IMG/VR virus record: IMGVR_UViG_3300027736_000021
From: a virus
Length of the DNA stretch: 64,000 nt
Strand: one strand, 5' to 3'
This document shows positions 4,192-50,700 of this stretch, one piece after another (positions within the stretch are counted from its first letter, which is position 1; each line of letters starts with the position of its first letter). The notes below the pieces were generated by a model. It made no database searches. It worked only from the letters and a program-made list of their open reading frames with translations, and had not been told where the DNA came from. A program made the position numbers and the translations under genes.

Positions 4192-5223
4192 ATGGCATCA
4201 AACAAATTATTTGAGGCAGCCGCAGAAATTCTTGCACAAAGCAAGGGTGCTGCACCAGCTATGCCTACACAAAAACTAGATGGTGAAACTGTCGATTTAG
4301 GTGGCCCAACACCTCAAGACAGCAAGCCAACTGACGATTCTAATAAAATCGACACAACAAAAAGCGCTAAGTCTGCAACTGCTCCAACAACGAAGCCATC
4401 TGCAGCTTCTGCCAAAATGGAAGAAACAGAGTCCGAAGAAGAAATCATTGCTGAAAAAATGCATGATGACGAAAAGAAAGAAATGATGAAGAAGAAAATG
4501 AAAGAGGACATTGATGCCCTTTTTGCTGACGATTCTACCATTTCTGAAGAATTCAAATCTAAAGTTTCTACAATTTTTGAAGCTCGTGTCCAAGACCGTG
4601 TTGCACAAATTGAAGAAGAAACTGAAGAGCGTTATGCTGGTATGCTTGAAGAGGCAGTTGAATCTATCAAGCAAGATTTGACAGAGAAAGTTGATGACTA
4701 TCTATCTTACATTGTTGAGCAATGGATGGAAGAAAATCAAATCGCTATTGAATCTGGTCTCCGTTCCGAAATGACCGAAGATTTTATTGCCGGTTTACGC
4801 AACCTATTTGCTGAGCACTATATTGATGTGCCTGCAGAAAAAGTCGACCTCGTTGATGAGTTGGCTGGTAAAGTTGAAGAACTTGAAACCAAACTCAATG
4901 AAGAAATCGAGCGTGGAGTTAGCTTTGCTAAAGCATTAGTTGAATCCCGCAAAAAAGAAATTGCTGGTGAAGTATGTGAAGGTCTCATTGCAACTCAAGT
5001 TGAAAAAATTAAATCACTCGCAGAGAGTGTTGAATTCTCCACAGAGGACGAATACAAAGAGAAACTTGAAACCATTCGTGAGAACTATTTTCCATCTGGC
5101 ATTAAAAAAGCTAGTGAATCACAACTTCAAGAAGAAGTAACTGATGGCTCAGAGAAGCAAGTCGTTTCTAACGACCCTTATGTTGCCGCAGTTGCAAACG
5201 CAATTTCTAAAACTAAAATTTAA
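4192..5223 (+). CDS. gp22: Prohead scaffold protein (gp22)
   Basis: Acidic coiled coil with KVDDYLSYIVEQWMEEN; lies between gp21 and gp23. Confidence 0.92.
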   Translation: MASNKLFEAAAEILAQSKGAAPAMPTQKLDGETVDLGGPTPQDSKPTDDSNKIDTTKSAKSATAPTTKPSAASAKMEETESEEEIIAEKMHDDEKKEMMKKKMKEDIDALFADDSTISEEFKSKVSTIFEARVQDRVAQIEEETEERYAGMLEEAVESIKQDLTEKVDDYLSYIVEQWMEENQIAIESGLRSEMTEDFIAGLRNLFAEHYIDVPAEKVDLVDELAGKVEELETKLNEEIERGVSFAKALVESRKKEIAGEVCEGLIATQVEKIKSLAESVEFSTEDEYKEKLETIRENYFPSGIKKASESQLQEEVTDGSEKQVVSNDPYVAAVANAISKTKI

Positions 5224-6666: not shown

Positions 6667-7218
6667 ATGACAGCAATTACAAGAAACCCAGCCAATCCAA
6701 ATTATCTACACCCTAATAAGTTTCAATTAAACTTTGGTAGGGCATCTAATGTTCAATACTTTTGCCAGTCTGTAAGTGTGCCTGGCATCTCCATGTCTGA
6801 AGTTCTACAAACTACTCCATTTGTTGACTTGTATAGACCTGGTGAAAAAGCCATTTACGATTTATTAAATGTTACCTTTATTGTTGATGAACAATTAAAA
6901 GCATGGTTAGAAATACACGATTGGATCCGTGCTATGACTTTTCCAACCAATTTCAAAGAATACCAAAATTTAGGCCTATTAAGTAAACAAGCTGGTATAA
7001 GGCAAGAATTAGGAATTGGTCCCCAATATTCTGACGCTACATTAACCGTGTTATCAACGGCAAATAATCCAACTCACCGATTTAAATTTTATGAAGTATT
7101 CCCTACAACACTATCCACATTTGTAATGTCGGCATCTGATACACCAGACAGTATCATTACTGCCGATGCCACATTCAGATATTCCTATTATGATGTTGAC
7201 ATAGTATCACAAAACTGA
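6667..7218 (+). CDS. gp3: Tail completion / sheath stabilizer (gp3-like)
   Basis: YFCQSVSVPGIS, FIVDE..W.EIHDW and FYEVFPTTLS; typical position after gp23. Start moved to 6667 because the ORF-track start lies inside the terminator. Confidence 0.85.
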   Translation: MTAITRNPANPNYLHPNKFQLNFGRASNVQYFCQSVSVPGISMSEVLQTTPFVDLYRPGEKAIYDLLNVTFIVDEQLKAWLEIHDWIRAMTFPTNFKEYQNLGLLSKQAGIRQELGIGPQYSDATLTVLSTANNPTHRFKFYEVFPTTLSTFVMSASDTPDSIITADATFRYSYYDVDIVSQN

Positions 7219-7678: not shown

Positions 7679-9142
7679 TTGGATATTAGACTAGAGAAAG
7701 TCAATGAAGCTTTTATTCGTGTTCACTCAGAAAGAAACATAGCTCAAGAACTTTCAGATTACTTTACTTTTTTTGTACCAGGTTACCAATTTACACCTGC
7801 ATACAAAGCACGATATTGGGATGGAAAGATACGCCTATTGGACTTACGAACAATGGGTTTGTATCATGGCCTTGTTCCTTATATTCAAAAGTTTGCTGAA
7901 GAAAGGCAATATCAAGTAGAGATTGATTCAGAGGTAACTGCTACTGAAAATTTCTCAATCAAAGAAGCCAAAGATTTTATTGAAACACTTAATCTTCCAC
8001 ATGAAGTGCGAGATTACCAATTAAATTCTTTTGTTCATGCAATACGAAACAAACGAATACTTCTATTATCTCCTACGGCATCAGGTAAATCTCTTATTCT
8101 TTATTTGATACTCCGTCAAATACAAGATGCTAACCATAAAAAAGGTCTATTAATTGTTCCAACTACATCATTGGTTGAACAAATGTATAAAGACTTTCAA
8201 GATTATGGATACGATTCAGATAAACATTGTCACCGACAGTATGCAGGTAAAGACAAGGTCACAGATAAGTTTTTAACCATTACTACATGGCAATCTATCT
8301 ACAAAAACCCACCAGAGTATTTTGAACAATATGATTTTGTTCTTGGTGATGAAGCACATCAATTCAAAGCTAAATCACTTACAACAATTATGTCTGGCAC
8401 AATTAATGCCAAGTATCGTATTGGTTGCACAGGTACATTAGATGGTACTCAGACACATCGCCTTGTATTAGAAGGTCTATTTGGTCCTGTTTATAGAGCC
8501 ACTTCTACCGCAGAGTTAATTCAAAATAAACAATTAGCAGATTTCAAAATCAAATGCCTTATATTAAAGTATCCTGATTCTGTTTGTAAAATGGCTCGTG
8601 ATTGGGACTACAATACAGAAGTTGAATATATAGTTATGAGCGCTGCTAGAAATGAATTCATTAAAAATCTAGCACTATCTTTAGAAGGTAATTCTCTTAT
8701 TCTTTTCCAGTTTGTAGAAAAACATGGCAGAGATTTACATTCAATTATCAAAGAACAAGCAAAGAATCGCCAGGTATTCTTTGTTTACGGAGGAACAGAT
8801 GTTGAAGTCCGTGAATCAATTCGTGCTATTACTGAAAAAGAAAAAGACGCTATTATTGTGGCATCTTATGGCACTTTCTCTACTGGTATTAACATTCGCA
8901 ATCTACACAATATCATCTTTGCAAGTCCTTCTAAATCAAGGATTCGTAATTTGCAATCTATCGGTAGAGGTTTACGGATAGGTGATGATAAAACTGAAGC
9001 CACATTATTTGATATCTCTGATGATTTCCGTATAGGCAAATTTACCAATTACACCTTGAAACATTTCGTAGAACGTGTTAAAATATACGATGATGAAAAA
9101 TTCAATTACAAGTTTTATAACATAGACCTAAAAAATGGATAA
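7679..9142 (+). CDS. uvsW: SF2 helicase UvsW
   Basis: WDGKIRL, SPTASGKS, DEAH and QSIGRGLR; TTG start. Confidence 0.96.
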   Translation: MDIRLEKVNEAFIRVHSERNIAQELSDYFTFFVPGYQFTPAYKARYWDGKIRLLDLRTMGLYHGLVPYIQKFAEERQYQVEIDSEVTATENFSIKEAKDFIETLNLPHEVRDYQLNSFVHAIRNKRILLLSPTASGKSLILYLILRQIQDANHKKGLLIVPTTSLVEQMYKDFQDYGYDSDKHCHRQYAGKDKVTDKFLTITTWQSIYKNPPEYFEQYDFVLGDEAHQFKAKSLTTIMSGTINAKYRIGCTGTLDGTQTHRLVLEGLFGPVYRATSTAELIQNKQLADFKIKCLILKYPDSVCKMARDWDYNTEVEYIVMSAARNEFIKNLALSLEGNSLILFQFVEKHGRDLHSIIKEQAKNRQVFFVYGGTDVEVRESIRAITEKEKDAIIVASYGTFSTGINIRNLHNIIFASPSKSRIRNLQSIGRGLRIGDDKTEATLFDISDDFRIGKFTNYTLKHFVERVKIYDDEKFNYKFYNIDLKNG

Positions 9143-14351: not shown

Positions 14352-14932
14352 GTGATATTTTTACAATTGATACCGAAGAAGGTATTGTTAAAGATAAAGA
14401 AGAAGTAATTAATCCGCTATCGTTGTTTAACGAAGATTATCCAATGCTTCTTCAAAAGATACCTGAATATGATGTTAGTAGATTGCCAAATCCAGTTCTT
14501 GGTAAATTAATCAAGCGATTGAAAATGACCATGAAATTGCATGGTGGTATTGGACTATCTGCTAATCAATGTGGAGTATTTGAAAGAGTTTTTGTAATTG
14601 GTGCCAATGATGCAGTTTGGGCTTGTATCAATCCAAAAATTCTTAATGCTTCGCCTGACTTGATACGAGATAAAGAAGGATGTTTATCTTTTCCTGGCTT
14701 AGCACTTAATGTAGAAAGACATTCTTGGGTAGAAGCAGAGTTTATTAACGAAGAATGTAAAGTTGTGCAAATGCGTTTTGAAGGTTTAACAGCAAGATGT
14801 TATCAACATGAACTTGACCATATGAATGGTATTAGGTTTACCAACCATGTTAAACCACTCGCACTAGAAATGGCAAAGAAACAACAAAAGAAGTTAATTA
14901 AAAAAATTATGAGATTGCATAAAAAAATATGA
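14348..14932 (+). CDS. def: Peptide deformylase
   Basis: GIGLSANQ, EGCLS and QHELDH; ATG 14348 overlaps the upstream stop. Confidence 0.95.
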   Translation: MSDIFTIDTEEGIVKDKEEVINPLSLFNEDYPMLLQKIPEYDVSRLPNPVLGKLIKRLKMTMKLHGGIGLSANQCGVFERVFVIGANDAVWACINPKILNASPDLIRDKEGCLSFPGLALNVERHSWVEAEFINEECKVVQMRFEGLTARCYQHELDHMNGIRFTNHVKPLALEMAKKQQKKLIKKIMRLHKKI

Positions 14933-16260
14933 TTGATGCTAAAGCTGATGTAGAAGAACAATGGAAACAATGGCAAGATGAGAATCCGCCAAGTTCTTTT
15001 GTTGATATTGATGAGAGTGTTCTCAAAGAGCAAGTTATCAATGATTTAACCTATGTTTCAAAAATGGATGTAAAAGAATACACACTCTATCAAAAGTGGT
15101 GTGAAATCAAAGAGAAATATCCTACTGTTATTAATCAAACTTTATTTGGTGAAGAAGTTCAGCTTGTTGACCCAAATCAACAAAAGGTTGTTGATGAAAT
15201 TAAGGCATCTATTTGGGTGCCACAATCAGCTGAAGATTATCTCAACTTACAACCTGTATTAGAATATACAGATGATTCTGGTAAAGATATGCAGATTGGT
15301 ATTGATGGTAAAGAATTTGAAGTAGAAAAGAAACGAAGTAAAGACTTACCTGAAAGATGGAACACAGTTCGTAATTTCATTTCAACAATGAAGAACAATA
15401 GTAACATTGGTCGCAACCTAAACTTCTTGGTTCGTGACCAGGTGACAGGCAAGTATCTAGGTGTCATCTGTATATCATCTGACTTCTTAGACCTTACTCC
15501 TCGTGATGAGAAGATTGGTTGGGCTCGTGAATTAAAGACACAAGGCAGTATGATTAATCACACGGCAATTGGTTCTACTATCGTTCCATTTCAACCACTT
15601 GGTTACAATTATGTTGGTGGTAAATTATTGGCATTACTCTGCCTATCTGATGAAGTGCAAAGATTATGGAAAAAACAATATGGTGATGTGTTGATTGGTG
15701 TAACAACAACATCATTGTATGGTAGAACAAAGGCTGATGGTCTATCACAATATGATAACCTTGACCACTGGCAGAAGATGGGTTTCACGGCAGGTTCAGT
15801 ATCATTTGAACCAAGTAGAAAAGTCCGTGGCAATATCATTAACTGGTTAAAAAAGAATCATACTCGTAATTACTTTGAATGGTATGTTGCAAAGAAACCA
15901 TCAGGTCAACCACACAAACGTGACCATAAGAATCGTTCACTAGGCTTTACTTATAGTAAACTAGGCATTCCTAAAGAGTTGATTAGAACTGACCATGCTC
16001 GAGGCATTTACTTCTCACCATTGTATGATAACTCTTATGAGTTTCTCCGTGGTGAAATCAAAGAAGAACAGTTGGTAAAATCATTTGATACCAGCTATGA
16101 ATCATTGGTGAATATCTGGAAAACAAAACACGCCATTGGCAGAATTAAACAATTGACCAAAAAGAATAAAGTATCCTATGAAACATTGTTTTATGATGAT
16201 TTGATTTACCTTTCATGGGAAGAAACAAAGGCAAAATATCTAGGTCAAGTAGGCAGATAA
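14929..16260 (+). CDS. DUF4338/DruA-like protein (putative GNAT/Mom-like transferase), copy 1
   Basis: IVPFQPLGYNYVGGKLLA, TTTSLYG, SQYD and GFTAG; same motif set as 36441-37559. Confidence 0.7.
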   Translation: MIDAKADVEEQWKQWQDENPPSSFVDIDESVLKEQVINDLTYVSKMDVKEYTLYQKWCEIKEKYPTVINQTLFGEEVQLVDPNQQKVVDEIKASIWVPQSAEDYLNLQPVLEYTDDSGKDMQIGIDGKEFEVEKKRSKDLPERWNTVRNFISTMKNNSNIGRNLNFLVRDQVTGKYLGVICISSDFLDLTPRDEKIGWARELKTQGSMINHTAIGSTIVPFQPLGYNYVGGKLLALLCLSDEVQRLWKKQYGDVLIGVTTTSLYGRTKADGLSQYDNLDHWQKMGFTAGSVSFEPSRKVRGNIINWLKKNHTRNYFEWYVAKKPSGQPHKRDHKNRSLGFTYSKLGIPKELIRTDHARGIYFSPLYDNSYEFLRGEIKEEQLVKSFDTSYESLVNIWKTKHAIGRIKQLTKKNKVSYETLFYDDLIYLSWEETKAKYLGQVGR

Positions 16261-16281: not shown

Positions 16282-16310
16282 TTGACAAGTTACATATATA
16301 ATGTTATAGT
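16282..16310 (+). promoter_or_regulatory. Sigma70-type promoter for the tRNA-like gene
   Basis: TTGACA-17 nt-TATAGT with extended -10 TG, ending 9 nt before the tRNA 5' end. Confidence 0.75.
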
Positions 16311-16319
16311 ATTGAATAT

Positions 16320-16388
16320 GCGGTGGGTTGTAGAACAAGTTGGACTTCCCGTTTAATTAACCTTGTGCAACTCAAGGCCACCGCTCCA
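16320..16388 (+). tRNA. Atypical tRNA-Gly(UCC), 69 nt, reduced D arm, encoded CCA
   Basis: Acceptor GCGGTGG/CCACCGC, U73, CCA; T arm CCTTG-TGCAACT-CAAGG; anticodon arm TTGGA-CTTCCCG-TTTAA (two G-U pairs); only 13 nt between the acceptor and anticodon stems. Confidence 0.85.
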
Positions 16389-16400
16389 CTATAAAAGACT

Positions 16401-16571
16401 ATGTTTACATTTCTAGGCATCGTAGGTTTTCTAATCACATTACTTGTTGCCATACCAGCAACATTAATCGCTTTCGCCTCTCTCATTGAACACCCAATAA
16501 AAACAATCATCAAATTGTGGGCAGATGTGGTTGAAACTTATCGCACTCTTTGGGAAAACATTTCAAAATAA
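16401..16571 (+). CDS. Small membrane protein (56 aa, absent from the ORF track)
   Basis: MFTFLGIVGFLITLLVAIPATLIAFASLIEHP...; hydrophobic N-terminal helix. Confidence 0.6.
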   Translation: MFTFLGIVGFLITLLVAIPATLIAFASLIEHPIKTIIKLWADVVETYRTLWENISK

Positions 16572-35851: not shown

Positions 35852-36444
35852 AACACAAAATACTTTACGACAAGTTACATTCTTATTCTCACCGATTCTG
35901 TGGTGAAAAAACTCTCAATCAAGTAATTTATTGGACTAGAAGAATGTTGGCTGAGCATAAAGTCAGAGTAAAAAAATATATTGATAAGACCAATACATCA
36001 TATAGTATTCTTTGTGTTGGTGGTTATTATGACCCAACAATTTATGATGGTAAAGATATTGAAATGTTTATTTCTTTTAATGAAAATGAAAAAGATGTAT
36101 CATTTAAGCTTGAAGAACCAACTGTAAAGGTTTTTATTGATGAAGTATTCAAAACATTGGTGCATGAAAAAAGGCATCGTTATCAATTTCGCCAAAGAGG
36201 CAATAACTTTGGTAAACAATACAGAAGTAATGTAGAGGATAAAACATTGAAGGTTCAACTAGAGTATTACGGTGACGATGATGAGATAGATGCCTATGCA
36301 CAAGAGGCAGTAATAGAGATGCGGTTACATGGCAACTCCCACTCTAAGGAAATGTATCAGATTTTATTTGCAAAAACAGACCCGGTAGTGTATAATAGAT
36401 TTTTAAAGAAATTCATTAAATACAATCAGAAAATTACACTATGA
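35848..36444 (+). CDS. HExxH zincin-like protein
   Basis: LVHEKRHRYQ and downstream EIDAYA. Confidence 0.55.
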   Translation: MKHKILYDKLHSYSHRFCGEKTLNQVIYWTRRMLAEHKVRVKKYIDKTNTSYSILCVGGYYDPTIYDGKDIEMFISFNENEKDVSFKLEEPTVKVFIDEVFKTLVHEKRHRYQFRQRGNNFGKQYRSNVEDKTLKVQLEYYGDDDEIDAYAQEAVIEMRLHGNSHSKEMYQILFAKTDPVVYNRFLKKFIKYNQKITL

Positions 36445-37559
36445 AATTAAATAAAGAACAAGCCATATATTGTGCCAAATACATGGAAGATTATTACCAT
36501 CATTTTGACCGCATTGATGATTATATGCGTAGTCAAAAAATGGGACAAATTGCAGAGATGCCTGTTTGTTTACCAGGATGTGGGCCTGAAGAAGATTTGT
36601 TCTCTGATTTCACCATTCATCCAGACGATATGGAGTTTGAATTGGTTGATATTGGTTCTTCTCGTTGGTTAGATTATATCTCCGTTATTTCTTCTCACCT
36701 AATCTCTCGTAGTGTTCCCGGTCGCATAGTTCAGTTTGCTGTATTTGAAAAGAACACAAAGAAGATTGTTGGTTTCATTCGCCTTGGTTCTCCCGTCATC
36801 AATATGAAACCTCGTAATGAAATGCTTGGTCAAGTATTCACACAGAGCAAAGAAGCCGCAAGAAACTTTAATAACTCGGCTGCAATGGGTTTCACCATTG
36901 TTCCTGCTCAACCATTTGGTTTCAATTATCTTGGTGGTAAATTACTTGCCGCTATGTGTTGTTCTCATGAATTGCGTGGAGTTATGAACAAAAAGTATGG
37001 TATGAATCTCTGCTTGTTTGAAACAACCAGTCTGTATGGTTCTTCAAAGACAGTATCACAGTATGATGGTATGAAACCATATCTCCGTTTCAAAGGTCTA
37101 ACTGATAGTAACTTTGTACCAATGCTTGACGGGGATGCCTACAAGAAACTTAAAGACTATGTTGAGGCTGCAACAGGTGAACAATTGGTTGATCCATCCG
37201 ATTCAAGTAAGAAACTCAAAGCAACAATAAAAGTTATTAGTATGGTTAAGATGGCACTAAAAGGTGAACCTGAACTCACACGATTCAATGAAGTGATTGA
37301 TAAGGCTAAAGGTCTTACTGAAAGAAAACGATACTATATCTCCAACTATGGTTTCAAAAACTTTATTGAAGTGGTTAATGGCACAGAAACAGAGTTGGTT
37401 CCTGACCCCGAAAACTATGAAAAGTTTCACATGAAAAACATCGTGGAATGGTGGAAAAAGAAAGCATCCAATCGTTTTGAAACATTAAAGAACGATGGCC
37501 GTATCAGAACCGAGATGGAAGTATGGTCTGGCGATAAAGAGATTGACATTATCCGTTAG
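36441..37559 (+). CDS. DUF4338/DruA-like protein, copy 2
   Basis: IVPAQPFGFNYLGGKLLA, ETTSLYG, SQYD and GLTDS. Confidence 0.7.
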   Translation: MKLNKEQAIYCAKYMEDYYHHFDRIDDYMRSQKMGQIAEMPVCLPGCGPEEDLFSDFTIHPDDMEFELVDIGSSRWLDYISVISSHLISRSVPGRIVQFAVFEKNTKKIVGFIRLGSPVINMKPRNEMLGQVFTQSKEAARNFNNSAAMGFTIVPAQPFGFNYLGGKLLAAMCCSHELRGVMNKKYGMNLCLFETTSLYGSSKTVSQYDGMKPYLRFKGLTDSNFVPMLDGDAYKKLKDYVEAATGEQLVDPSDSSKKLKATIKVISMVKMALKGEPELTRFNEVIDKAKGLTERKRYYISNYGFKNFIEVVNGTETELVPDPENYEKFHMKNIVEWWKKKASNRFETLKNDGRIRTEMEVWSGDKEIDIIR

Positions 37560-40964: not shown

Positions 40965-41810
40965 ATGAAAGATTTGATTATAGGATGTACCACGAATTAT
41001 GATTGGAGTAAACTGAAGTATTGGGTTAACTCTATCAACAAATCAGGTTATAAAGGCGAGAAAGTTATGGTCGCCTTTAACATTGATTATGAAACCATCA
41101 AACGGCTATCTGATGCCGGATTTCAGGTCATTTTGCCTGGAAAAGCAAACGACACCACACAACGATATGAATACCAATCATCGTTGCCTGTCCATGTAGA
41201 GCGCTTTGTTCACATCTACAATTACCTACAATCACATGATGCTTATCGGTTTGTTATTACTACCGATGTTAAAGATGTAATCTTTCAGGAAGACCCAACA
41301 AAATACCTTGGCATGGAATTACCAGGTGCTAAGCTGATGTTTGCTTCCGAATCAATGAAATACAAAGATGAACCATGGGGTAACCAAAACTTAATTGAAA
41401 CATTTGGTCCCTTCTTCCATGAAAGATTCAAAGACAATACAATCTACAATGTAGGCGTTTTGGCAGGTCGTGGTGAAGCGATGAGAGATTTGTGTGCGAT
41501 GATATTTGTTATGTCAGTAAATCGACCTATACCAATTGTGGATCAATCCACATTTAACTTTATGATTTCACAAGAGCCATATAAATCTGTGGCAAGATAC
41601 ATGAAGTCAGAAGATGGATGGGCTGCACAATTAGGCACAACTGCCGACCCAAGTAAGATTAACGAATTCAAACCATTCTTGCTTGAACCATCACCAATTA
41701 TGAAAGACGGCAAAGTTGCAACTTCAACAGGAAAAGACTTTACAATTGTTCATCAATATGATAGAGTACCAGAATGGAAAAAGGTTATAGAGGAAAAATA
41801 TAATGACTAA
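40965..41810 (+). CDS. GT-A glycosyltransferase-like protein
   Basis: TDVKDVIFQ, NVGVLAG, DQ and HQYDR. Confidence 0.7.
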   Translation: MKDLIIGCTTNYDWSKLKYWVNSINKSGYKGEKVMVAFNIDYETIKRLSDAGFQVILPGKANDTTQRYEYQSSLPVHVERFVHIYNYLQSHDAYRFVITTDVKDVIFQEDPTKYLGMELPGAKLMFASESMKYKDEPWGNQNLIETFGPFFHERFKDNTIYNVGVLAGRGEAMRDLCAMIFVMSVNRPIPIVDQSTFNFMISQEPYKSVARYMKSEDGWAAQLGTTADPSKINEFKPFLLEPSPIMKDGKVATSTGKDFTIVHQYDRVPEWKKVIEEKYND

Positions 41811-42831
41811 AAGAGTATTAATTACAGGTGGTGCAGGCTTCATTGCACATCACTTGATTGAAACAATCCTTGATACAACAGATTGGACAATCGTATCACT
41901 TGACCGATTAGATTTCTCTGGCAATCTAAATCGCCTTGAAGATATTATGAAGAAGTATTCACCTGAGCAGAAGAAACGGGTTGAGATTGTGTTCCATGAT
42001 TTGCGTGCTGAAATTAATCCACAGACTTCAGGTTTAATTGGTGATGTTCAATTAGTATTGCACCTTGCAGCTGGTTCTCATGTAGACCGCTCAATTGAAT
42101 TTCCAATGGAGTTTGTGCAAGACAATGTAATCGGTACAGTTAATCTATTAAACTATGCTCGCACATTAAAGAACTTAGAAAAGTTTGTTTACTTCAGCAC
42201 AGATGAAGTGTTTGGTCCCGCACCAGAAGGCGTAGATTACAAAGAAAGAGACCGTTACAATGCTACGAATCCATATTCAGCATCTAAGGCGGCAGGTGAA
42301 GAAATGTGTGTTGCATTTGAGAACACATACAATATGCCAATCATTGTTACACATACAATGAATGTGTTTGGTGAACGCCAACATCCTGAGAAGTTTATTC
42401 CTAAGGCCATTCGGTATGCTCGTGATGGTGAAACACTTACTATTCACTCTGATAGAAGCAAAACAAAGGCAGGCTCACGCCACTATGTTCATGCTAAAGA
42501 TGTTGCAGATGGTTTAATGTTTATTCTAAACCTGCCTGAAGATTATGCTCGTATTCCAGATTTTGGTGGTGCGAAGATTCCTAAGTTTAATATTGTGGGA
42601 CCAGATGAAGTAGATAACTTAGAATTGGCTAAATTAATTGCAGAAGCACAAAACAAGGAGTTAAAATATGAAATGGTTGACTTTCATTCATCCAGACCTG
42701 GCCACGATTTACGCTACGCTTTGTCTGGTGATTATATGGAATCTTTAGGATGGAAACCAAAGATTTCTTTGCGTGACCGCATTAAAGGTATGGTTCAATG
42801 GTCGTTAGAAAATGATAAGTGGCTCAAATGA
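41803..42831 (+). CDS. rfbB: dTDP-glucose 4,6-dehydratase-like enzyme
   Basis: TGGAGFI, SHVDRSI, STDEV, YSASK, QHPEKFIP and RPGHDLRY. Confidence 0.9.
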   Translation: MTKRVLITGGAGFIAHHLIETILDTTDWTIVSLDRLDFSGNLNRLEDIMKKYSPEQKKRVEIVFHDLRAEINPQTSGLIGDVQLVLHLAAGSHVDRSIEFPMEFVQDNVIGTVNLLNYARTLKNLEKFVYFSTDEVFGPAPEGVDYKERDRYNATNPYSASKAAGEEMCVAFENTYNMPIIVTHTMNVFGERQHPEKFIPKAIRYARDGETLTIHSDRSKTKAGSRHYVHAKDVADGLMFILNLPEDYARIPDFGGAKIPKFNIVGPDEVDNLELAKLIAEAQNKELKYEMVDFHSSRPGHDLRYALSGDYMESLGWKPKISLRDRIKGMVQWSLENDKWLK

Positions 42832-43535
42832 AGATTGCTCTTTGTTTATCAGGACAAGCTCGTAGCGTAAAACAAGGTTATGAGTTTGTTAAAAGAAACA
42901 TACTAGACGGTAATGATGTTACCGTTTTTTGTCATGTGTGGGAATCACCTGAAGTTGCAGATATTGAAATCTATAAACCTGAAGCATTTATGATTGAGAA
43001 GTCATTGACAAATGACCTATCAAAATACACCAGAGTTCCGCCACCACAACCAAATTGGAAAGTAAAAGACCCAGCTAGGTCAACTTATAACCAATTGTAT
43101 GGCATTATGAAATGTAATGAATTAAAAACGGTCTATGAAGAATCCAATAACATGAAATTTGATTGGGTAATTCGTTCTCGTTTTGATTTTGCCATTAATG
43201 CTAGAATACCTTTTGCAGATTTAGATAATACAAAACTTCATATACCTAATTGTCGTATGACACCTCAAAGAGATTTCGGTAATGACCAATTTGCATTTTC
43301 ATCTTCAGAAAATATGGACAAGTATGCAGACACTTTTAACCGTATTGATGAATTTTATGATGAAGATGGTGTGCAAATGATGTGTGAAGATATGATGAGT
43401 GAAAACTGGAAAGCAAATAATTTAGTTGGAGAAAATTTGATATATTGTAATCTTGACCATCCATTTCCACCAGGCCAATATAACGGAACATGGCACAGTT
43501 TGATTCGTGAGGACTTTGAACAATGGCTTCGTTAG
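42828..43535 (+). CDS. Glycan-related hypothetical protein
   Basis: MKIALCLSGQAR, RSRFD and NDQFA; sits in the sugar island. Confidence 0.55.
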   Translation: MKIALCLSGQARSVKQGYEFVKRNILDGNDVTVFCHVWESPEVADIEIYKPEAFMIEKSLTNDLSKYTRVPPPQPNWKVKDPARSTYNQLYGIMKCNELKTVYEESNNMKFDWVIRSRFDFAINARIPFADLDNTKLHIPNCRMTPQRDFGNDQFAFSSSENMDKYADTFNRIDEFYDEDGVQMMCEDMMSENWKANNLVGENLIYCNLDHPFPPGQYNGTWHSLIREDFEQWLR

Positions 43536-44239
43536 TATTATGCATGGCTGGGTTAAACACCAGATTCCATGATGTTGGCTTTGACATACCAAAGTATCTG
43601 TTGCCTTGGGGTGATGAAACAATTATCCATGAAATCATTAAGCAACTTGGTACTTTTGATGAAACTATTCTTCTGGCGAATAAAAGAGATTCTTATTTTA
43701 AGACCAAGTTAGTTGATACAATTAAACCACTAGGTCTAACAGAGAATAATATTCAATACATTGGTGATACTGATGGTCAGGCACACACAGCATACATTGG
43801 TGCTTCACTACTAAAGAATCAAACCAAACCATTCTTTGTTCACAATGCTGATACACTTTTAATTGGCAGAGATTTTGATAAGATTGAAAGTTTGATGGCT
43901 GATGGTTACATTGATGTGTTTGTTGCCAATAATCCAAAGTATTCTTATGTTCGTTCAAAAGATGGACTTGTAACAGAGATTGTAGAGAAATCTCCTATCT
44001 CTCCATTTGCCAGTTCTGGTCTATATGGGTTTCAAAGCTCACAATTATACCAACAGATGTATGAGAGTTTATCTGCCACATTTGTTGGTAAGGAAATGTA
44101 TATTGCAAATCTATTTACACATATGATTGAGAAGAATTGTTCTATTGGCTTGAATGGATTAAATAACAACTATGAAACTATTGTTCTTGGTTCACCACAA
44201 GAATATGGTCTTGAACTAGCAAAGAAAAGTTTAAAATGA
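43523..44239 (+). CDS. Sugar nucleotidyltransferase-like protein
   Basis: MAGLNTRF...PKYLL, GQAHT, HNAD, IVEK and LGSPQE. Confidence 0.8.
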   Translation: MASLVLCMAGLNTRFHDVGFDIPKYLLPWGDETIIHEIIKQLGTFDETILLANKRDSYFKTKLVDTIKPLGLTENNIQYIGDTDGQAHTAYIGASLLKNQTKPFFVHNADTLLIGRDFDKIESLMADGYIDVFVANNPKYSYVRSKDGLVTEIVEKSPISPFASSGLYGFQSSQLYQQMYESLSATFVGKEMYIANLFTHMIEKNCSIGLNGLNNNYETIVLGSPQEYGLELAKKSLK

Positions 44240-45189
44240 AAGTTACACAATTAAAAGGCGGTTCTCTTAGTTCTACATCATTATATGAAGATGGTGATAG
44301 GAAGTTTATTCGCAAATCAATTAGCACAAAAGACAATCGTGAATATGGTTATGTTCGTTGGTATACACAGTTAAAGAAACTACAACGATTGGCTGAAACT
44401 GGTTTGTTTCCAAAAATATTAGATGTGAATTATTCAAATAACTCAGCCTATTTTGATATCGCTTATTTGGAAGGTTACAGAGATATTAAAACCATTTTAT
44501 CAGAAGATAAATTAACTGAAAATCAAATTGAAAGAATACATGATGCGATGATGTGGTCGTTTGATAACTTACACCGCAAAATGTATATACCAAATCCTGG
44601 TGGTCCCAAATTATATTTTAAAGAAGAAGTTACACAAAAACTTTCAGATGCTTTTAAGTATCCAACTTTCTATAATTTTTATGAACTTGGAACATTCAAT
44701 ACTTTTGAATACAATGGTCAAATAACACATGGCATTCAAAACTTTTTACCTGAGTTGAAGAACTTCTTTGATGAAATGGAATTGGTTACAGAAGAAAATA
44801 TTCATGGTAATCCAACATTAGAAAATATGATGTATTCTTTTGAAGAAGATAAAGTCATATTCATTGACCCGTATGAAGAAAGCATTATAGATAGTAGGCT
44901 ATTAGATTATTCACAGGTGCTTCAATGTTCTCGTAGTCATTATGGCTTTATAAATGATAGGTTTGTTATCATAGAAGGTTCATCTGTATCACATAACTTA
45001 GAAATACCAAATAATCTAAAAGTATTTAATAAAATCTTTGAATCACACCTTGAACATAAACAAATCATTGATGTATTAGAGGCAACTCAATTCATTCGTA
45101 TGTTGCCATTTAAGTGTGCAGCTGGTGATTTTGAAAAGGCAAAATTCTTTTATGTTCATGCTTGCCACTTGTTAAGTAAGATATTCTAA
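44236..45189 (+). CDS. APH/choline-kinase-like small-molecule kinase
   Basis: GGSLS, IRK, HGNPTLENM and FIDP. Confidence 0.75.
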   Translation: MKVTQLKGGSLSSTSLYEDGDRKFIRKSISTKDNREYGYVRWYTQLKKLQRLAETGLFPKILDVNYSNNSAYFDIAYLEGYRDIKTILSEDKLTENQIERIHDAMMWSFDNLHRKMYIPNPGGPKLYFKEEVTQKLSDAFKYPTFYNFYELGTFNTFEYNGQITHGIQNFLPELKNFFDEMELVTEENIHGNPTLENMMYSFEEDKVIFIDPYEESIIDSRLLDYSQVLQCSRSHYGFINDRFVIIEGSSVSHNLEIPNNLKVFNKIFESHLEHKQIIDVLEATQFIRMLPFKCAAGDFEKAKFFYVHACHLLSKIF

Positions 45190-46331
45190 TGGAAAATGTA
45201 TTAACAAAATTTGATAATTATAAACGCACTTGGTCAGTTAAAGCTGAACTGCCGGTTGAATTTGTCTTAAAGTATTCTAGTGATGTATTTAATATTAACA
45301 ATCACGACCTGTTAAGTTTTGGTGAGTCCAATCGTAGAGTGGTTGTCATAGACCAGACTGTATATAAACTGTATGGTCAACAATTACAAGATTACTTCAA
45401 CACATTCAAAATAGAATTAAAACTATTTGTTATTGATGCCACAGAACAAAACAAAGATTGGGAACACACAGACCAGATTTTAAGGTTCTTTGAAGATGTT
45501 GGTGTATTGCGTAGAGAAGCAATCATTGTAATTGGTGGTGGTGTTCTGCTTGATTTGGTTGGATTCTGTTGTTCAATCTATCGCAGAGGCATTCCTTATG
45601 TTAAAGTTCCAACTACATTGTTGGCTATCGTAGATGCTTCTGTTGGTGTTAAAGTTGCAGCTAATCACTTTGGCCGCAGAAATCGTATTGGTGCATATTA
45701 CCCACCAATTGCCACATTACTAGACAAGAAGTTTATTGCTACACAAGATGAAAGAAACATTGTCAATGGCATTGCAGAGATATTTAAACTTGCAGTAATC
45801 AAAGACAAAGAATTATTTGAGTTACTTGAAGCAAGTGCAGAACAACTAATCACCGAGAAGTTTCAGTTTGGTGCAGTACCAGTTCGTGTAATCAATTCTG
45901 CCATTACGGGCATGATTGAAGAATTGGCACCAAATTTATGGGAAAGAAAACTAGACCGATGTGTTGACTTTGGCCATTCGTTTAGTCCTATTATTGAAAT
46001 GCAAAATATGGACACACTACAACATGGCGAAGCAGTTGTATTAGATTGCTTGTTGAGTTCTTGTTTGGCTAATGTTCGTGGTTACATTGATACTGAAACA
46101 CTAGAAAGAATCTTTAAGACAGCACACAGTTTAAAATTGCCTGTATTCCATAAAGATTTTTGTAAATTTGACTTGCTTAAAAAGTCTTTATCTGATACAA
46201 TGAAGCATAGAAACAGTAATCAATACTTACCTGTGCCAGTCGGCATTGGCAACTATAAAATATTAAATGATGTAACAGATGATGAGATAAAGAAAGCTTC
46301 AGATATATTTGAAGAAGTTAAATATGAATAA
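45189..46331 (+). CDS. Sedoheptulose-7-phosphate cyclase, 2-epi-5-epi-valiolone synthase (EEVS) type
   Basis: GGGVLLD, YRRGIPY..PTTLL, NGIAEIFK, MIEELAPNLWE, RCVDFGHSFSP and HGEAV. Confidence 0.88.
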   Translation: MENVLTKFDNYKRTWSVKAELPVEFVLKYSSDVFNINNHDLLSFGESNRRVVVIDQTVYKLYGQQLQDYFNTFKIELKLFVIDATEQNKDWEHTDQILRFFEDVGVLRREAIIVIGGGVLLDLVGFCCSIYRRGIPYVKVPTTLLAIVDASVGVKVAANHFGRRNRIGAYYPPIATLLDKKFIATQDERNIVNGIAEIFKLAVIKDKELFELLEASAEQLITEKFQFGAVPVRVINSAITGMIEELAPNLWERKLDRCVDFGHSFSPIIEMQNMDTLQHGEAVVLDCLLSSCLANVRGYIDTETLERIFKTAHSLKLPVFHKDFCKFDLLKKSLSDTMKHRNSNQYLPVPVGIGNYKILNDVTDDEIKKASDIFEEVKYE

Positions 46332-46995
46332 GACAATTCTAATTACTGGCACCACAAGTGGTGTTGGTGCAAAAATCGCATATGATTACATTGAGAAAGG
46401 TTGGAATGTAATTGGTTTTGCTCGTGGTGAATCTATATTTCAATTTCCAAACTACAAACATTTTCAAGTTGATGTTACTAGCTGTTATGAGATGTATGAT
46501 ATATTTGAACAGATTGGTAATATTGACATTCTAGTTAATAATGCAGCTGTCTTTAAGATGAAATCATTTTCAGACACCACTTTAGATGAGATTGATGATA
46601 TGATTGATATCAATCTTAAAGGTGCCATGTATGTAACTAAGTTTGCATTACAGAAAATGGAAAAAGGCAGTCGTATATTCTTTATCAATTCAGTTGCAGG
46701 CCTTGAAGAACTAGAAAACCAATCCGCATATTGTGCCTCTAAACATGGTCTTACAGGATTTGCTGGTGTTCTTGGTGAAGAATTGCGTAGCAGAGGAATC
46801 AAAGTAACAAGTATTCATCCAGGCGGTATTGATACACCATTGTGGAGTAGAGATATACCTTACCCATGCGGTGATGTAAGTAAGGCAATCTCACCAATAG
46901 AACTTGTAAAAGTTATTGATTTCGTGTATAATAGCCAATTCAATATTGAATATAAAACTATTAAAATGTTTCCTGATACCGAATGGCACAAATGA
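46324..46995 (+). CDS. SDR oxidoreductase
   Basis: TGTTSGVG, NNA, YCASK and PGGIDT. Confidence 0.9.
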   Translation: MNKTILITGTTSGVGAKIAYDYIEKGWNVIGFARGESIFQFPNYKHFQVDVTSCYEMYDIFEQIGNIDILVNNAAVFKMKSFSDTTLDEIDDMIDINLKGAMYVTKFALQKMEKGSRIFFINSVAGLEELENQSAYCASKHGLTGFAGVLGEELRSRGIKVTSIHPGGIDTPLWSRDIPYPCGDVSKAISPIELVKVIDFVYNSQFNIEYKTIKMFPDTEWHK

Positions 46996-47705
46996 TTATA
47001 CCTAGTACCGATTTGTTTATTGTAACCTCTGCTCTTAAAACGAGCATTGGTGTTATTGATGATGAAACAAGAACAAGGCAAACAATTGAAGGTCTGCAAT
47101 CATTACGCAAGGCTGCACCTGATGCTATTATCTTCTTAGTAGATGCTTCTTCTAGGATGGTTGATGAAGCAACAATGGTTACAGTAACACAATATTGTGA
47201 TAGAAGTATTAGTTTTTTTGGTGATGAAGATTTAATGTCACTCGCAAATGCAGGCCTTAAATCACAAGCAGAAATTACTCTATTGTTTAAGACATTAAGT
47301 ATTATTAAACAACATCCTGAATTACAGAAGATGATGGCTGGTGTTCGTAGGGTGTTTAAGTTATCTGCTAGAACCAATATGCTTGAAGGTTATGACCCTA
47401 AGGCATATGATAATCAATATGGTAAGTATGTGTTCAAGAAAGCAATGCCATCTTGGTTACCACCACAGAAACAATTGGAATCTGGTTGTGACCACTTATA
47501 CATAACTAGAATGTATTCATTCTGTATATCATTGTTTGATAATTATCTGAATACTTTACCAGCAATTTATCAAACAATAAATCAACATGGCGTTGACACA
47601 GAACACGCACACTATGGTAATATTGATAAAGGTTTTTCAGTAGAATTTGAAAAGTTATATTGCCAAGGAGTATTGGCTGGAAATGGACAATTGGAAGCAT
47701 ATTAA
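46992..47705 (+). CDS. Hypothetical protein in the sugar island (possible GT-like fold)
   Basis: FIVTS...R..QT...FKLSAR; context only. Confidence 0.45.
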   Translation: MIIPSTDLFIVTSALKTSIGVIDDETRTRQTIEGLQSLRKAAPDAIIFLVDASSRMVDEATMVTVTQYCDRSISFFGDEDLMSLANAGLKSQAEITLLFKTLSIIKQHPELQKMMAGVRRVFKLSARTNMLEGYDPKAYDNQYGKYVFKKAMPSWLPPQKQLESGCDHLYITRMYSFCISLFDNYLNTLPAIYQTINQHGVDTEHAHYGNIDKGFSVEFEKLYCQGVLAGNGQLEAY

Positions 47706-48988
47706 TGATTGATGATAAATTAATTGAAGAAATAGCCAAACAGGCTAAACCAAAGTATCAACAAGACTATTCTAACTTCAAACCTGGCGAAGATTATGTA
47801 ATGTATTCTGGCCAAATGTGGGACGAAAAAGAGTTTGCTGCTGGTCTAAAATCGTTTCTAACAGGTAAATGGTTACCAGCAGGTGAAAGAGTTGAGCAAT
47901 TTCAAATTAAGTTCTCAAAGAAATACAATGTAAAACAATCTCACATGGTTAATTCTGGTTCATCTGCCAATTTGGTGATGATGGCTGCTGTTAAGAAACA
48001 TTTAAATTGGCAAGATGGTGATGAAGTCATTGTATCACCAGTTGGATTTCCAACTACAATTGCACCACTCATGCAAAACAATCTTAAACCAGTATTCATT
48101 GATATTGAGTTTGATACATTGAACTTTGATGTGAATAAGATTGAAGAAAAGATTACAAAAAAGACCAAAGCAATTATTGTTTCTCCTGTATTGGCCAATC
48201 CGCCTGACATGGATATAATCCATGATATTTGTTACAGAAATAACCTTGTATTGATTGGTGATAATTGTGATTCACTAGGCACCAAATGGGATGGAAAGTT
48301 GATTACTGATTTATATTACTGCTGGTCAACATCATTCTATCCTGCACACCATATGTCAACAGGTGAAGGCGGTATGATTTCATCTAATGATGAAAAGTTA
48401 ATTGATACTGCTCGTTCTATTTCTTGGTGGGGTCGTGATTGTTATTGTGTTGGTTCAAACAATATGTTACCATGTGGAACTTGTGGTAATAGATTTGATA
48501 AGTGGTTGCCAGATTATGATGGCATTATTGACCACAAATATATTTTTGCTTATGCAGGTTACAACCTGAAGCCTCTTGATATGCAAGGTGCCATTGGTAT
48601 AGCACAATTAGAAAAGGTTGATTACATTCACGAGAAAAGAAAAGAACATAAAGAACGGCTAACCAAACTATTGCTTAAATATTTGAATGTTCGTGTTGCT
48701 GACAAACTAGATAAATCTGAACCATCATGGTTTGGTGTGCCAATTATTTGTGAAACACAAAAACAAAAAGAAGCTTTAGTTGCACACTTTGAAGCCAATA
48801 AGATTCAAACACGAAACTATTTTGCTGGTAATATTCTATTGCATCCAGGCTTTAAACACTTAGATGATGCGAGTAAATATCCATTGGCAAACAAAGCGTT
48901 ATCTCATGTATTTTTGTTAGGTTGTCCTCCATTTTGGAATGATGCAGTATTTGATTATATTGAAAAGGTGATTAAAAATGTTACTTAA
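47705..48988 (+). CDS. rfbH: NDP-4-keto-6-deoxyhexose 3-dehydrase (RfbH/DdhC-like, DegT family)
   Basis: NSGSSAN, SFYPAHH (His in place of the PLP Lys), WGRDCYC...CG Cys motif and DHKY. Confidence 0.88.
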   Translation: MIDDKLIEEIAKQAKPKYQQDYSNFKPGEDYVMYSGQMWDEKEFAAGLKSFLTGKWLPAGERVEQFQIKFSKKYNVKQSHMVNSGSSANLVMMAAVKKHLNWQDGDEVIVSPVGFPTTIAPLMQNNLKPVFIDIEFDTLNFDVNKIEEKITKKTKAIIVSPVLANPPDMDIIHDICYRNNLVLIGDNCDSLGTKWDGKLITDLYYCWSTSFYPAHHMSTGEGGMISSNDEKLIDTARSISWWGRDCYCVGSNNMLPCGTCGNRFDKWLPDYDGIIDHKYIFAYAGYNLKPLDMQGAIGIAQLEKVDYIHEKRKEHKERLTKLLLKYLNVRVADKLDKSEPSWFGVPIICETQKQKEALVAHFEANKIQTRNYFAGNILLHPGFKHLDDASKYPLANKALSHVFLLGCPPFWNDAVFDYIEKVIKNVT

Positions 48989-49169
48989 AAATGTAAATGA
49001 TTGTAATTTAATTGTTGAAACACAATCGACTAGAAACCCATCTGATTTAACTAAAATTACATTTAGACGAGAAATTTTAGATTCAAAAACCAAAAAAGTA
49101 ATTAGTTACAATAATTTTGATATGCATCTTACAAATGATGAAATCCAAAGGTTAAAACAAGCACTATGA
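48978..49169 (+). CDS. Hypothetical protein
   Basis: 63 aa, overlaps both neighbours. Confidence 0.5.
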   Translation: MLLKNVNDCNLIVETQSTRNPSDLTKITFRREILDSKTKKVISYNNFDMHLTNDEIQRLKQAL

Positions 49170-49981
49170 AAATTCAAGTATTTGGTGGCTCAGGCTTCGT
49201 TGGTTCTGAATTTACTAGACAGAATCCTGGTTGTATAGTAAATGCTCGTAATGATTATGAAATAAAAAGCCAAGATATTCTTTACATGATTTCTACTGTA
49301 ACAAATTACAATGTAAAGACTGACCCTTTTATTGACATTGATACAAATCTTACTATATTGATGAAAGTTTTACGACAATGTAAAAGTTCACCCGTAACAT
49401 TTAACTTTATCAGTTCATGGTTTGTTTATGGTGAAACAGAGATGCCTGCAACCGAAGAATCAAATTGTTATCCAAATGGATTCTATTCTATTACTAAACG
49501 ATGTGCAGAGCAATTACTAATCTCTTATTGTGAAACATTTGGTATCAAGTATCGTATTCTCCGTCTTGCTAATGTTGCAGGTTATGGCGATAAAAAGGCA
49601 TCACCACAAAAGAACGCACTTCAACATATGATTAATGAATTGAAGGCAGGCCGTGATGTGAATGTCTATGATGGCGGCAATCTTTACCGAGATTATATTC
49701 ATGTGAATGATGCCGCTAGAGCAATTAAACTCATCATGGAAAAAGGCGAAGTTAATACTACCTACAATGTGGGTAATGGGCAACCATTGTTATTCAAGGA
49801 TATGATTGAGTATGCCAAAGAATTAATTGGTGGGGAAGGCAAATTAGTGCCGATTGAAATTCCTGACTTCCATCGCACGGTACAAGTTCGTAGTATGTGG
49901 ATGCTATCTGATAAATTAAAATCATTAGGATACACTCCAAACTATGATATGAAGGCTATTATTGAGGACATGGTTAAATGA
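49166..49981 (+). CDS. NAD-dependent epimerase/reductase
   Basis: GGSGFVG, YSITK and RDYIHV. Confidence 0.88.
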   Translation: MKIQVFGGSGFVGSEFTRQNPGCIVNARNDYEIKSQDILYMISTVTNYNVKTDPFIDIDTNLTILMKVLRQCKSSPVTFNFISSWFVYGETEMPATEESNCYPNGFYSITKRCAEQLLISYCETFGIKYRILRLANVAGYGDKKASPQKNALQHMINELKAGRDVNVYDGGNLYRDYIHVNDAARAIKLIMEKGEVNTTYNVGNGQPLLFKDMIEYAKELIGGEGKLVPIEIPDFHRTVQVRSMWMLSDKLKSLGYTPNYDMKAIIEDMVK

Positions 49982-50700
49982 ATTTAATTTTGTATCAGGC
50001 ATACTATGATAACAGTCAGTTGCCTATTTTAGACTCTACATTTACCCCGTATGATAATACAGAAAATGCCAAACCAGAATTGCGGGAATATCCCATGTGG
50101 AAAAATCTATTAGAAAAACACAAAGATACCGATGTATATTGGGGTCTTTTATCGTGGCGTTGGATGCAAAAGACAGAGTTGCCTTCTTCTGAGTTTCGTG
50201 ATTGGATTTTGGCCAATCCTGATTACGATGTGTATCACATGGATCCAAGTTTAGAAGTTACAGCAAACTATATTAATCTTTGGGTGCAAGGTGACCAATG
50301 GCATCCCGGTATGCTGAAGTTTGCAAATCGTTTATTTCCAAAAATTGGTATCACCGAGAAGGCTGAAGAATTAGTTTATAAGTCTGATGATTTTGCTACT
50401 TGCAATTATTATATTGGCAACTCAAAGTTTTGGACAGAATGGTTAACATTCCTTGATAACACATTAGAGATTTGTCGTGGAGATGGAGAACTATATAATT
50501 ACCTCTATCGTGATGGTAAAGGATATAACGGCTCATGGATCCCATTCTTTTCATTTGTAACGGAAAGATTGTTATCTATTTTCTTAATTCAAAATAGGCA
50601 CATAAAAGTTAAGAAGTTTCCCATTGAACACTCATGTTATGCAAAACGATTTGGCTCACAATTTCACCAGTTTGTAGAAGAATATAATAAAAAGAAATGA
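49978..50700 (+). CDS. Glycan-related hypothetical protein
   Basis: WGLLSWR, HPG, CNYYI and FVTERL; sits in the sugar island. Confidence 0.5.
   Translation: MNLILYQAYYDNSQLPILDSTFTPYDNTENAKPELREYPMWKNLLEKHKDTDVYWGLLSWRWMQKTELPSSEFRDWILANPDYDVYHMDPSLEVTANYINLWVQGDQWHPGMLKFANRLFPKIGITEKAEELVYKSDDFATCNYYIGNSKFWTEWLTFLDNTLEICRGDGELYNYLYRDGKGYNGSWIPFFSFVTERLLSIFLIQNRHIKVKKFPIEHSCYAKRFGSQFHQFVEEYNKKK

Follow-up and report, generated by a model that had tools for sequence, protein, structure and literature searches.

Why would a phage carry a gene for a glycine tRNA that appears unfit for the ribosome? The question is raised by a 69-nt element in a 64,000-nt stretch of viral DNA (IMG/VR record IMGVR_UViG_3300027736_000021), which we refer to, at its full length, as the window. 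A preliminary description, made from the sequence alone, had read the element as a tRNA-Gly(UCC) that keeps the identity set for glycyl-tRNA synthetase (GlyRS) and has lost the features needed in translation, and our direct reading of the sequence and structure agreed with it. We find that the element is almost certainly a real RNA derived from tRNA-Gly. Comparison with its relatives indicates that it is very probably not a decoder, and that it is likely to be charged with glycine. That it acts as a GlyRS-chargeable, non-ribosomal carrier of glycine is a reading to which we give an even chance, and its service as the glycine donor in a non-ribosomal transfer is a more tentative possibility.

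The element (index 1 being position 16320) retained several traits of a tRNA. These were a 7-bp acceptor stem in which all pairs are perfect (GCGGUGG/CCACCGC), a 5-bp T stem (CCUUG/CAAGG) with G53-C61 and a U-A pair at 51-63, A58, and a 3' NCCA. The T loop read UGCAACU (G53-U54-G55-C56). In the anticodon arm, strands UUGGA and UUUAA flanked the residues C32 U33 U34 C35 C36 C37 G38, with C35 and C36 located at 16348-16349. The seven-nucleotide anticodon loop with U33 and a purine at position 37 was absent, since C32 and G38 close a UUCCC loop that carries C37, and both U8 and the elbow formed by G18-G19 with U55-C56 were missing. The minimum-energy fold was a cloverleaf of -23.2 kcal/mol (z = -2.05 relative to shuffled sequences).

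The preliminary description had predicted that standard scanners would miss this RNA, and they did. ARAGORN called no tRNA in the 64-kb window, nor did it make a call in any of 23 loci with a homologue of the element. Rfam detected no tRNA in the window at the gathering score and none at E <= 10 between 16100 and 16600, and the element therefore does not score as a canonical elongator tRNA (Rfam RF00005) with either program. A search of the window with covariance model R1, with filters off, identified a single copy of the RNA. Weak R1 hits at 4216-4257 and elsewhere, scoring up to 10.5 bits, were dismissed as chance minihelices.

Homologues were collected from IMG/VR using as bait the DruA-like protein encoded upstream of the RNA, which returned 80 loci with proteins 67-100% identical to that of the window. 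In 61 of them a homologous element was present at the same place, after the DruA-like gene, starting with GCGG and ending with CCGCTCCA; five other loci end too early to judge, one of which shows the start of the RNA. Thirty-four distinct sequences of 62-69 nt were found among the 61 loci, and the exact first 32 nt of the window copy were present in seven contigs. Nearly all variants, when folded singly, adopted the same four-way junction, in which the acceptor stem had 5-7 pairs, the D hairpin 3 bp and a loop of 3-5 nt, the long anticodon-like helix 5-9 pairs, and the T arm mostly 4-6 pairs and a 7-nt loop, with hardly any variable region. Covariance model R1 fitted the shorter variants, which have a UCCCAA loop, to the same architecture with scores of 19-35 bits.

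RNAalifold analysis of 24 variants revealed compensatory changes in 15 of the 21 consensus pairs. All eight pairs of the anticodon-like helix covaried, and the three pairs of the D stem showed compensatory changes in 3, 3 and 11 sequences. The pair that closes the anticodon-like loop (32-38 in tRNA numbering) was always a standard one and also covaried, being UA in nine of the 24 variants, AU in seven, GC in six and CG in two. For a slightly extended structure, 82.5% of the cells were paired, compared to 36-49% when the partner was slid by 1-3 columns. The covariation score was 0.455, against 0.174 for shuffled data (none of 500 shuffles reached 0.455) and at most 0.16 for the slid partners; the D-arm register was one column off in this count, and the D-arm pairs rest on the RNAalifold result.

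What the family holds constant, other than the T-loop scaffold, G4-C69 and the CCA, is the bacterial GlyRS identity set. Among 26 distinct variants aligned to the model, the invariant bases were G1, C2, G3, G4, C35, C36, G53, A58 and C61, along with the last eight bases (C69 C70 G71 C72 U73 C74 C75 A76). U5 was also invariant in these 26, but not in the variants with a CCCA loop (loop-type-c), and MAFFT coordinates gave the same set of invariant positions. Glycine identity in bacteria is specified by U73, G1-C72, C2-G71, C35 and C36, and the combination of U73 with G71 is described as exclusive to tRNA-Gly (reviewed in PMC9976931). The identity set, including G3-C70, was complete in the window element and invariant in the family.

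The features associated with decoding showed no such constancy. In the 26 variants, position 33 was U in 12, G in nine, C in three and a gap in two, position 37 was C in 16 and A in 10, and position 8 was G in 20. Position 34 could be U, A or C. Position 55 was G in 25 of the 26 model-aligned variants and U in most of the loop-type-c variants, position 56 was C, A or U, and the T loops of relatives started with UGC, UGA, UGU, AGC or UUU. None of the D loops contained GG, and at most a lone G was present. The anticodon loops were 4-6 nt in size (UUCCC, UACCC, CACCC, GUCCA, CCCA or CCCC), and although an NCC triplet was found at the same place in every variant, the loop geometry of a decoder is absent. 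The pattern across the family is best explained if selection has favoured recognition by GlyRS and a usable 3' end, but not decoding. The invariant glycine set, the variability of U33 and of the purine at 37, and the covariation of 32-38 strongly support the core of the preliminary description, namely a selected RNA that is chargeable by GlyRS and unfit for the ribosome, with the charging itself being predicted from sequence.

Phages of this lineage also encode ordinary glycine tRNAs. The complete relative G002 (168,911 bp, with direct terminal repeats) had 33 tRNAs called by ARAGORN, covering all amino acids, and its tRNA-Gly(UCC) and tRNA-Gly(GCC) had regular D, anticodon and T loops. Exactly one copy of the aberrant RNA was present in this genome, at 7881-7948. 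A canonical phage tRNA-Gly (for example, L096:5960-6032 in G002) shares with the aberrant RNA the first four acceptor pairs, U73, CCA and C35-C36, but unlike it has U8, a GG in the D loop, a 7-nt CUUCCAA loop and GGUUCGAAUCC. Canonical tRNAs of G002 scored 33-75 bits with the Rfam tRNA model, whereas the aberrant copy gave no match at E <= 0.01, even though the other tRNAs of the same phage were found. Since canonical tRNAs are maintained in the phage lineage, the aberrant form is a separate and selected entity.

A possible origin of the RNA was suggested by one locus (L157:6680-6876). Here the aberrant RNA (6733-6799), preceded by its own TTGACA/TATAAT promoter, was followed after 3 nt by a canonical tRNA-Gly(UCC) (6803-6876), and the two lay under one promoter and headed an array of tRNAs (Gly, Glu, Asp, Gln, Ser, Ser). 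This adjacency suggests common descent, and the aberrant RNA may have arisen by duplication of a tRNA-Gly. A simple pattern search also identified 74-nt relatives in cultured phages. In Mosig EXVC030M the relative (MT647606.1, 7779-7852, minus strand; L162:1501-1574) lies between the hsp20 and gp45 genes and has the acceptor GCGGAUA/UAUCCGC-U-CCA and the T loop GGCAGUA; the spot is annotated as a hypothetical coding sequence of 31 aa (Mosig_000011), and both ARAGORN and Rfam miss the RNA. In HTVC008M it is found between the CobS and S21 genes (KC465899.1, 91140-91213; L165:1501-1574), where no feature is annotated, and has the T loop AGCGUUA. The two share the form GCGG...CCGC-U-CCA, the loop UUACCAA (anticodon ACC) and the absence of GG from the D loop, and they seem to represent the same trend at a lesser degree of reduction.

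The RNA usually appeared to be a stand-alone gene, having its own promoter and, in most relatives, a terminator-like hairpin downstream. Among relatives, 25 distinct upstream contexts had a good -10 box ending 5-11 nt before G1, the commonest distance being 9 nt, while other relatives had a TATATAAT box ~19 nt upstream of the RNA. Two styles of promoter were seen, either a full TTGACA-17-TATAAT or a TATATAAT box with a GCTTG-type motif ~30 nt upstream, and the latter recalls the middle promoters of T4. A leaderless transcript was ruled out by the loci in which the -10 box lies ~19 nt upstream, and some 5' trimming is therefore to be expected. Terminator-like hairpins with a T run were found within 90 nt 3' of the RNA in 30 of 46 distinct downstream contexts, usually starting 0-12 nt after the CCA; two of these 30 lie inside the 56-aa open reading frame (ORF) that follows the RNA, and are probably spurious. 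The window itself (L001, of identical sequence) showed no such hairpin downstream of the RNA; in its subclade the 56-aa ORF follows instead, and probably only there is this ORF co-transcribed with the RNA. The positions of these features are given in Table 1.

Table 1. Coordinates in the window of the tRNA-Gly-like RNA, its parts and the features around it.
Feature	Position	Strand	Evidence or remark
tRNA-Gly-like RNA gene, 69 nt, encoded CCA	16320..16388	+	covariance model R1 75.9 bits, E 3e-19
Acceptor stem, 5' strand GCGGUGG	16320..16326	+	G1, C2, G3, G4 invariant in RNA family
Mini D hairpin UUGU-AGA-ACAA, without G18-G19, preceded by G8 (not U8)	16328..16338	+	sequence reading
Anticodon-like helix, 8 pairs including 32-38, closing 5-nt loop UUCCC (16346-16350)	16339..16358	+	
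T arm CCUUG-UGCAACU-CAAGG	16361..16377	+	G53-C61, A58 invariant; positions 55, 56 variable in family
Acceptor stem, 3' strand CCACCGC, discriminator U73, CCA	16378..16388	+	last 8 bases invariant
Strong sigma-70-type promoter TTGACA-17(TG)-TATAGT	16282..16310	+	11/12 matches; -10 box ends 9 nt before G1
Predicted membrane ORF, 56 aa, start 12 nt after CCA	16401..16571	+	
DruA/DUF4338-family protein, 443 aa, GNAT-fold core (~residues 102-387)	14929..16260	+	Pfam PF14236, E 5e-22
Second DruA/DUF4338 paralogue, 372 aa, phrog_19197	36441..37559	+	after gp41-like helicase gene and 198-aa ORF

Variants of the RNA did not follow the proteins encoded beside them. The loop types were incongruent with a tree of the adjacent DruA-like proteins (L001-L080, built from a quick search and with some long branches), on which the three types were scattered with 6-8 changes per type and the loci without the RNA formed two groups. 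Very different RNAs were found in L001, L007 and L009, yet the proteins of these loci are at least 90% identical to that of the window. Near-identical proteins beside such different variants indicate that the RNA evolves or is exchanged fast with the same few features being kept, and suggest either cassette-like exchange or very fast evolution.

Are there precedents for a tRNA-Gly of this kind? The non-proteogenic tRNA-Gly(UCC) species of staphylococci, NP1-NP3, are glycine donors for FmhB/FemA/FemB, have a UGC/UGU T loop, a six-pair stem and a five-base loop, bind EF-Tu weakly and do not bind the ribosome, and their lineage has been described as confined to staphylococci (PMC7826273). The phage RNA resembles them in being an extra tRNA-Gly beside the proteogenic ones with glycine identity retained, in a T loop that, in the window copy, lacks U55 (UGC, against UGC/UGU in staphylococci), and in a six-pair anticodon stem with a five-base loop. 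The poor fit to EF-Tu and the ribosome that has been shown for the staphylococcal RNAs would be expected for the phage RNA. Unlike NP1-NP3, the phage RNA is not cell-encoded, is 62-69 nt in length with a 3-bp D hairpin, and lacks variable-region and elbow contacts; neither is U33 conserved or the sequence of the T loop fixed. By analogy, it appears to carry the logic of the staphylococcal RNAs much further, and in a virus.

The convergence on these staphylococcal RNAs that the preliminary description had proposed therefore holds in part. A G-UGC T loop was found in the window phage (UGCAACU) and in some relatives, but it is not common to all, with AGC, UUU, UGA or UGU in others, and the D arm is reduced far beyond that of any described staphylococcal species. 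As for the features ascribed to the staphylococcal RNAs themselves, the UGC/UGU T loop and the six-pair stem with a five-base loop were confirmed in PMC7826273, whereas a pyrimidine at position 37 was not confirmed there.

If the element is a glycine carrier, we envisage that the gene would be transcribed from its own promoter, that the transcript would be trimmed to its CCA end, and that host GlyRS would glycylate the RNA. Being unable to decode, and probably a poor binder of the translation machinery, the RNA would then hold glycine privately, outside translation. Expression, charging, exclusion from translation, and a consumer enzyme together with its identity are all steps that we infer. 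The shortened D arm and the closed loop might impair recognition of C35 and C36 by GlyRS, which would count against charging. A literature search found no published description of such a phage RNA.

The genes that surround the RNA identify its carrier. All genes of the window lie on the + strand, at a G+C content of ~35%, and include those for T4-type portal, scaffold and major capsid proteins as well as for UvsW, gp46/47-like, gp45, gp44, gp43, UvsX and gp41 proteins. These T4-type structural and replication proteins indicate that the window is part of a T4-like myovirus. Around the RNA the order of genes was gp46-like, methyltransferase, peptide deformylase (PDF), DruA/DUF4338-like, the RNA, two small ORFs, a 784-aa 'peptidase' (phrog_459) and a CobS-like ATPase. 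The closest cultured relatives of the upstream DruA-like gene were in the Pelagibacter phages Mosig EXVC030M (61.5% amino-acid identity) and HTVC008M (54.8%), both members of the Kyanoviridae. Pelagibacter, in contrast to Staphylococcus, has a Gram-negative-type cell and is not known to have glycine bridges. The element itself had no DNA match in public phage records, in which the sole match nearby was a 51-nt segment at 80% identity in the end of the upstream gene, and the RNA locus was missing from the nearest virus record, G001.

Elsewhere in the window, a cluster of genes for a sugar-nucleotide or aminosugar pathway was found at 41803-51476. It comprises GDP-mannose-dehydratase-like epimerases, a nucleotidyltransferase, a dehydroquinate-synthase-like enzyme, a short-chain dehydrogenase, a DegT-type aminotransferase and a 2OG-Fe(II) oxygenase, and could modify the host surface or a phage component. 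At 51524-53989 the window encodes an 821-aa protein with a cytidylyltransferase-like N-terminus and a Zeta-toxin/AAA_33 kinase-like domain.

Which enzyme might use the glycylated RNA? The best candidate would be one of the two phage GNAT-fold DruA/DUF4338 proteins, although we regard the DruA-like protein as a doubtful user. The AlphaFold2 model of the 443-aa protein (pLDDT 93.7, from a 78-sequence alignment) has a GNAT fold, as judged from 146 chains that matched this predicted structure at Z >= 8, nearly all of the 50 listed being GNATs. Its first 110 residues, folded alone, gave a pLDDT of 77 and a best Z of 3.9 against 48,161 chains, and hence no informative fold and no ground for assigning a DNA-binding domain. 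Mom of phage Mu (8bv8_B) was nominally the top structural match (Z 9.8, root-mean-square deviation 3.9, 171 residues aligned). Mom, like the neighbour of the RNA, is a phage enzyme with a GNAT fold, and it transfers glycine from Gly-tRNA-Gly to DNA adenine (PMC13219725; PDB 8bv8). On this precedent a GNAT that depends on a tRNA is plausible, but the donor cannot be read from the fold alone. Mom uses the ordinary tRNA-Gly of its host, and no dedicated RNA has been described for it, whereas the window has a candidate for one. A wider picture, in which a host-charged, ribosome-invisible RNA of widespread aquatic T4-like phages feeds a DruA/DUF4338 GNAT enzyme that glycylates DNA or another macromolecule, is speculative and, in our view, rather improbable.

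Several observations weigh against a link between the RNA and DruA. The match to Mom was tied with CoA-dependent GNATs at Z 9.2, and a Q-x-x-G motif in the DruA core may be compatible with binding of acyl-CoA. Foldseek searches of the PDB with the model returned only weak GNAT hits (E >= 0.011), and a hidden Markov model of the DruA alignment found nothing relevant among PDB sequences. Comparison of the DruA profile with Mom using hhalign gave a probability of 1.2% against the single sequence and 0.2% against the Mom profile, that is, no sequence homology between the two families; a 'Mom-like' label for the DruA-like protein was consequently rejected and that of 'GNAT fold' alone was kept. The Mom profile detected no gene of the Mom family (Pfam PF25680) in the six frames of the window at E <= 10, and in a scan of 57 window ORFs against Pfam there was no match at E <= 0.001 to Mom, to L/F-transferase or to the Fem transferases that serve the staphylococcal RNAs.

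The genomic distribution weighs in the same direction. The whole PDF-DruA-RNA-peptidase-CobS region is syntenic, so that the adjacency of the RNA and DruA is inherited, and in 14 of the 80 loci the DruA-like gene was present and the aberrant RNA absent. The complete or near-complete genomes G007 and G008 had a DruA-like gene and a canonical tRNA-Gly, and no aberrant RNA. In L129 and L157, both with a DruA-like gene of a more distant clade, the RNA lies ~6-8 kb from that gene, and in L129 it is 7.7 kb downstream. Neither this RNA nor a tRNA-Gly was found within 2.5-3 kb of seven distant DruA homologues in metagenome or genome contigs (L102-L106, L113-L117) or of four in cyanophage or marine-virus records (L109-L112); L117, which lacks the RNA, still shares the PDF-DruA-peptidase synteny.

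The four records L109-L112 are those of the Synechococcus phages S-SCSM2R, S-SSM7 and S-8S56 and of the marine virus AG-345-O18. In the three cyanophage records that are annotated, the DruA-like gene is of the paralogue type and lies between the clamp-loader genes gp44 and gp62 (L111 is unannotated), and the label 'methylcarbamoylase mom' given to it in one of them was unsupported by profile comparison. An unrelated, phage-like contig of 66 kb (L105:3001-7212) carries a DruA-family gene, 32% identical to that of the window, with a true member of the Mom family (PF25680) ~3 kb away. Genes for NAMPT and ClpP are found nearby, and no tRNA-Gly-like RNA lies within 3 kb.

Other explanations of the element have to be weighed against that of a glycine carrier. 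Its rejection by tRNA scanners might be taken to mean that it is a decaying tRNA-Gly pseudogene or a chance cluster of hairpins. The preliminary description had argued against random decay, and its argument was borne out: the same locus was conserved in 61 contigs, the changes among homologues were compensatory, occurring in all four helices save the invariant outer acceptor pairs, and promoter and terminator were maintained. Unless the alignments are artefactual, the covariation data already refute this reading, and its probability is negligible. We also consider it quite unlikely that the element is a genuine decoding tRNA-Gly despite its reduced D arm. The NCC triplets UCC, ACC and CCC are glycine anticodons, true tRNA-Gly also has a potential 32-38 pair, and the 74-nt relatives have a regular 7-nt loop with U33 and A37, the HTVC008M copy scoring 49.5 bits with the Rfam tRNA model. 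However, U33 was not conserved in the window's clade, more than half of the variants having G, C or a gap there, position 37 was often C, the elbow bases were gone, and loops of 4-6 nt were closed by covarying Watson-Crick pairs. Mitochondrial tRNAs with a reduced D arm still decode, but their anticodon loop retains seven nucleotides, U33 among them, and the factors they work with have co-evolved. The phage RNA is like them in its short D arm, its lost tertiary pairs between D and T loops and its length of less than 70 nt, and differs in having a closed anticodon loop in which U33 is free to vary. A34 is not known to be used in bacterial tRNA-Gly, and that of the HTVC008M copy is unusual for a tRNA-Gly of bacterial type. 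Moreover, canonical tRNA-Gly(UCC) and tRNA-Gly(GCC) are encoded by the same phages, so there is no decoding gap to be filled.

Conservation of the acceptor end could instead reflect a decoy or sponge, which would mimic this end and sequester a host factor that targets or monitors tRNA-Gly, such as a GNAT toxin of the TacT/AtaT2 type that acetylates Gly-tRNA-Gly, and would so spare the real pool. The conserved features are those that such toxins read, since the specificity of TacT rests on U73 and G71 (PMC9976931). Charging of a decoy would likewise need the GlyRS set, a non-decoding body would make the modified decoy harmless, and RNA types that turn over rapidly relative to the neighbour's protein tree would be in line with an arms race. 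This explanation is nevertheless unlikely, because a decoy substrate would protect poorly against a toxin that acts catalytically and no anti-defence context was seen; further, the nearest cultured relatives infect Pelagibacter, whose streamlined genomes are not known to hold many toxin or defence systems. The alternative role offered in the preliminary description, as a decoy for anticodon nucleases, was a poor fit, as the loop is unlike the anticodon loop of a real tRNA-Gly, and it was ruled out because neither the sequence nor the size of the loop is conserved. An uncharged regulatory or structural RNA that merely resembles tRNA-Gly is also an unlikely explanation. It might, for example, bind or titrate a tRNA-binding protein such as GlyRS or RNase P, or help to process or stabilise transcripts nearby. 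The ORF that begins 12 nt after the CCA in the window, and the ORF starts 15 nt after the tRNA-like gene in HTVC008M and ~26 nt after it in Mosig, would be in keeping with this, and the conserved bases would suit GlyRS binding without catalysis equally well. Against it, a terminator follows right after the RNA in most relatives, which is hence not generally a leader, conservation is limited to the glycine identity set and the scaffold, and the invariant encoded CCA and discriminator suggest that the 3' end is chemically used.

Very few systems with dedicated non-translational tRNAs are known, and the cell-wall tRNA-Gly of staphylococci is the textbook case. The RNA described here represents a tRNA-like class that is overlooked by standard tRNA scanners. 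A family of phage RNAs reduced to the synthetase identity set would show that viruses can divert a host synthetase to a private carrier, would point to an undescribed glycine-dependent reaction in very abundant aquatic phages, and would supply a natural minimal substrate that defines what GlyRS needs. Should the RNA be a carrier and DruA its user, the two would form a two-part, tRNA-dependent modification system with enzyme and private donor alike provided by the virus, and the DruA reading, if true, would provide the first biochemical clue to how DruA acts in the Druantia defence system.

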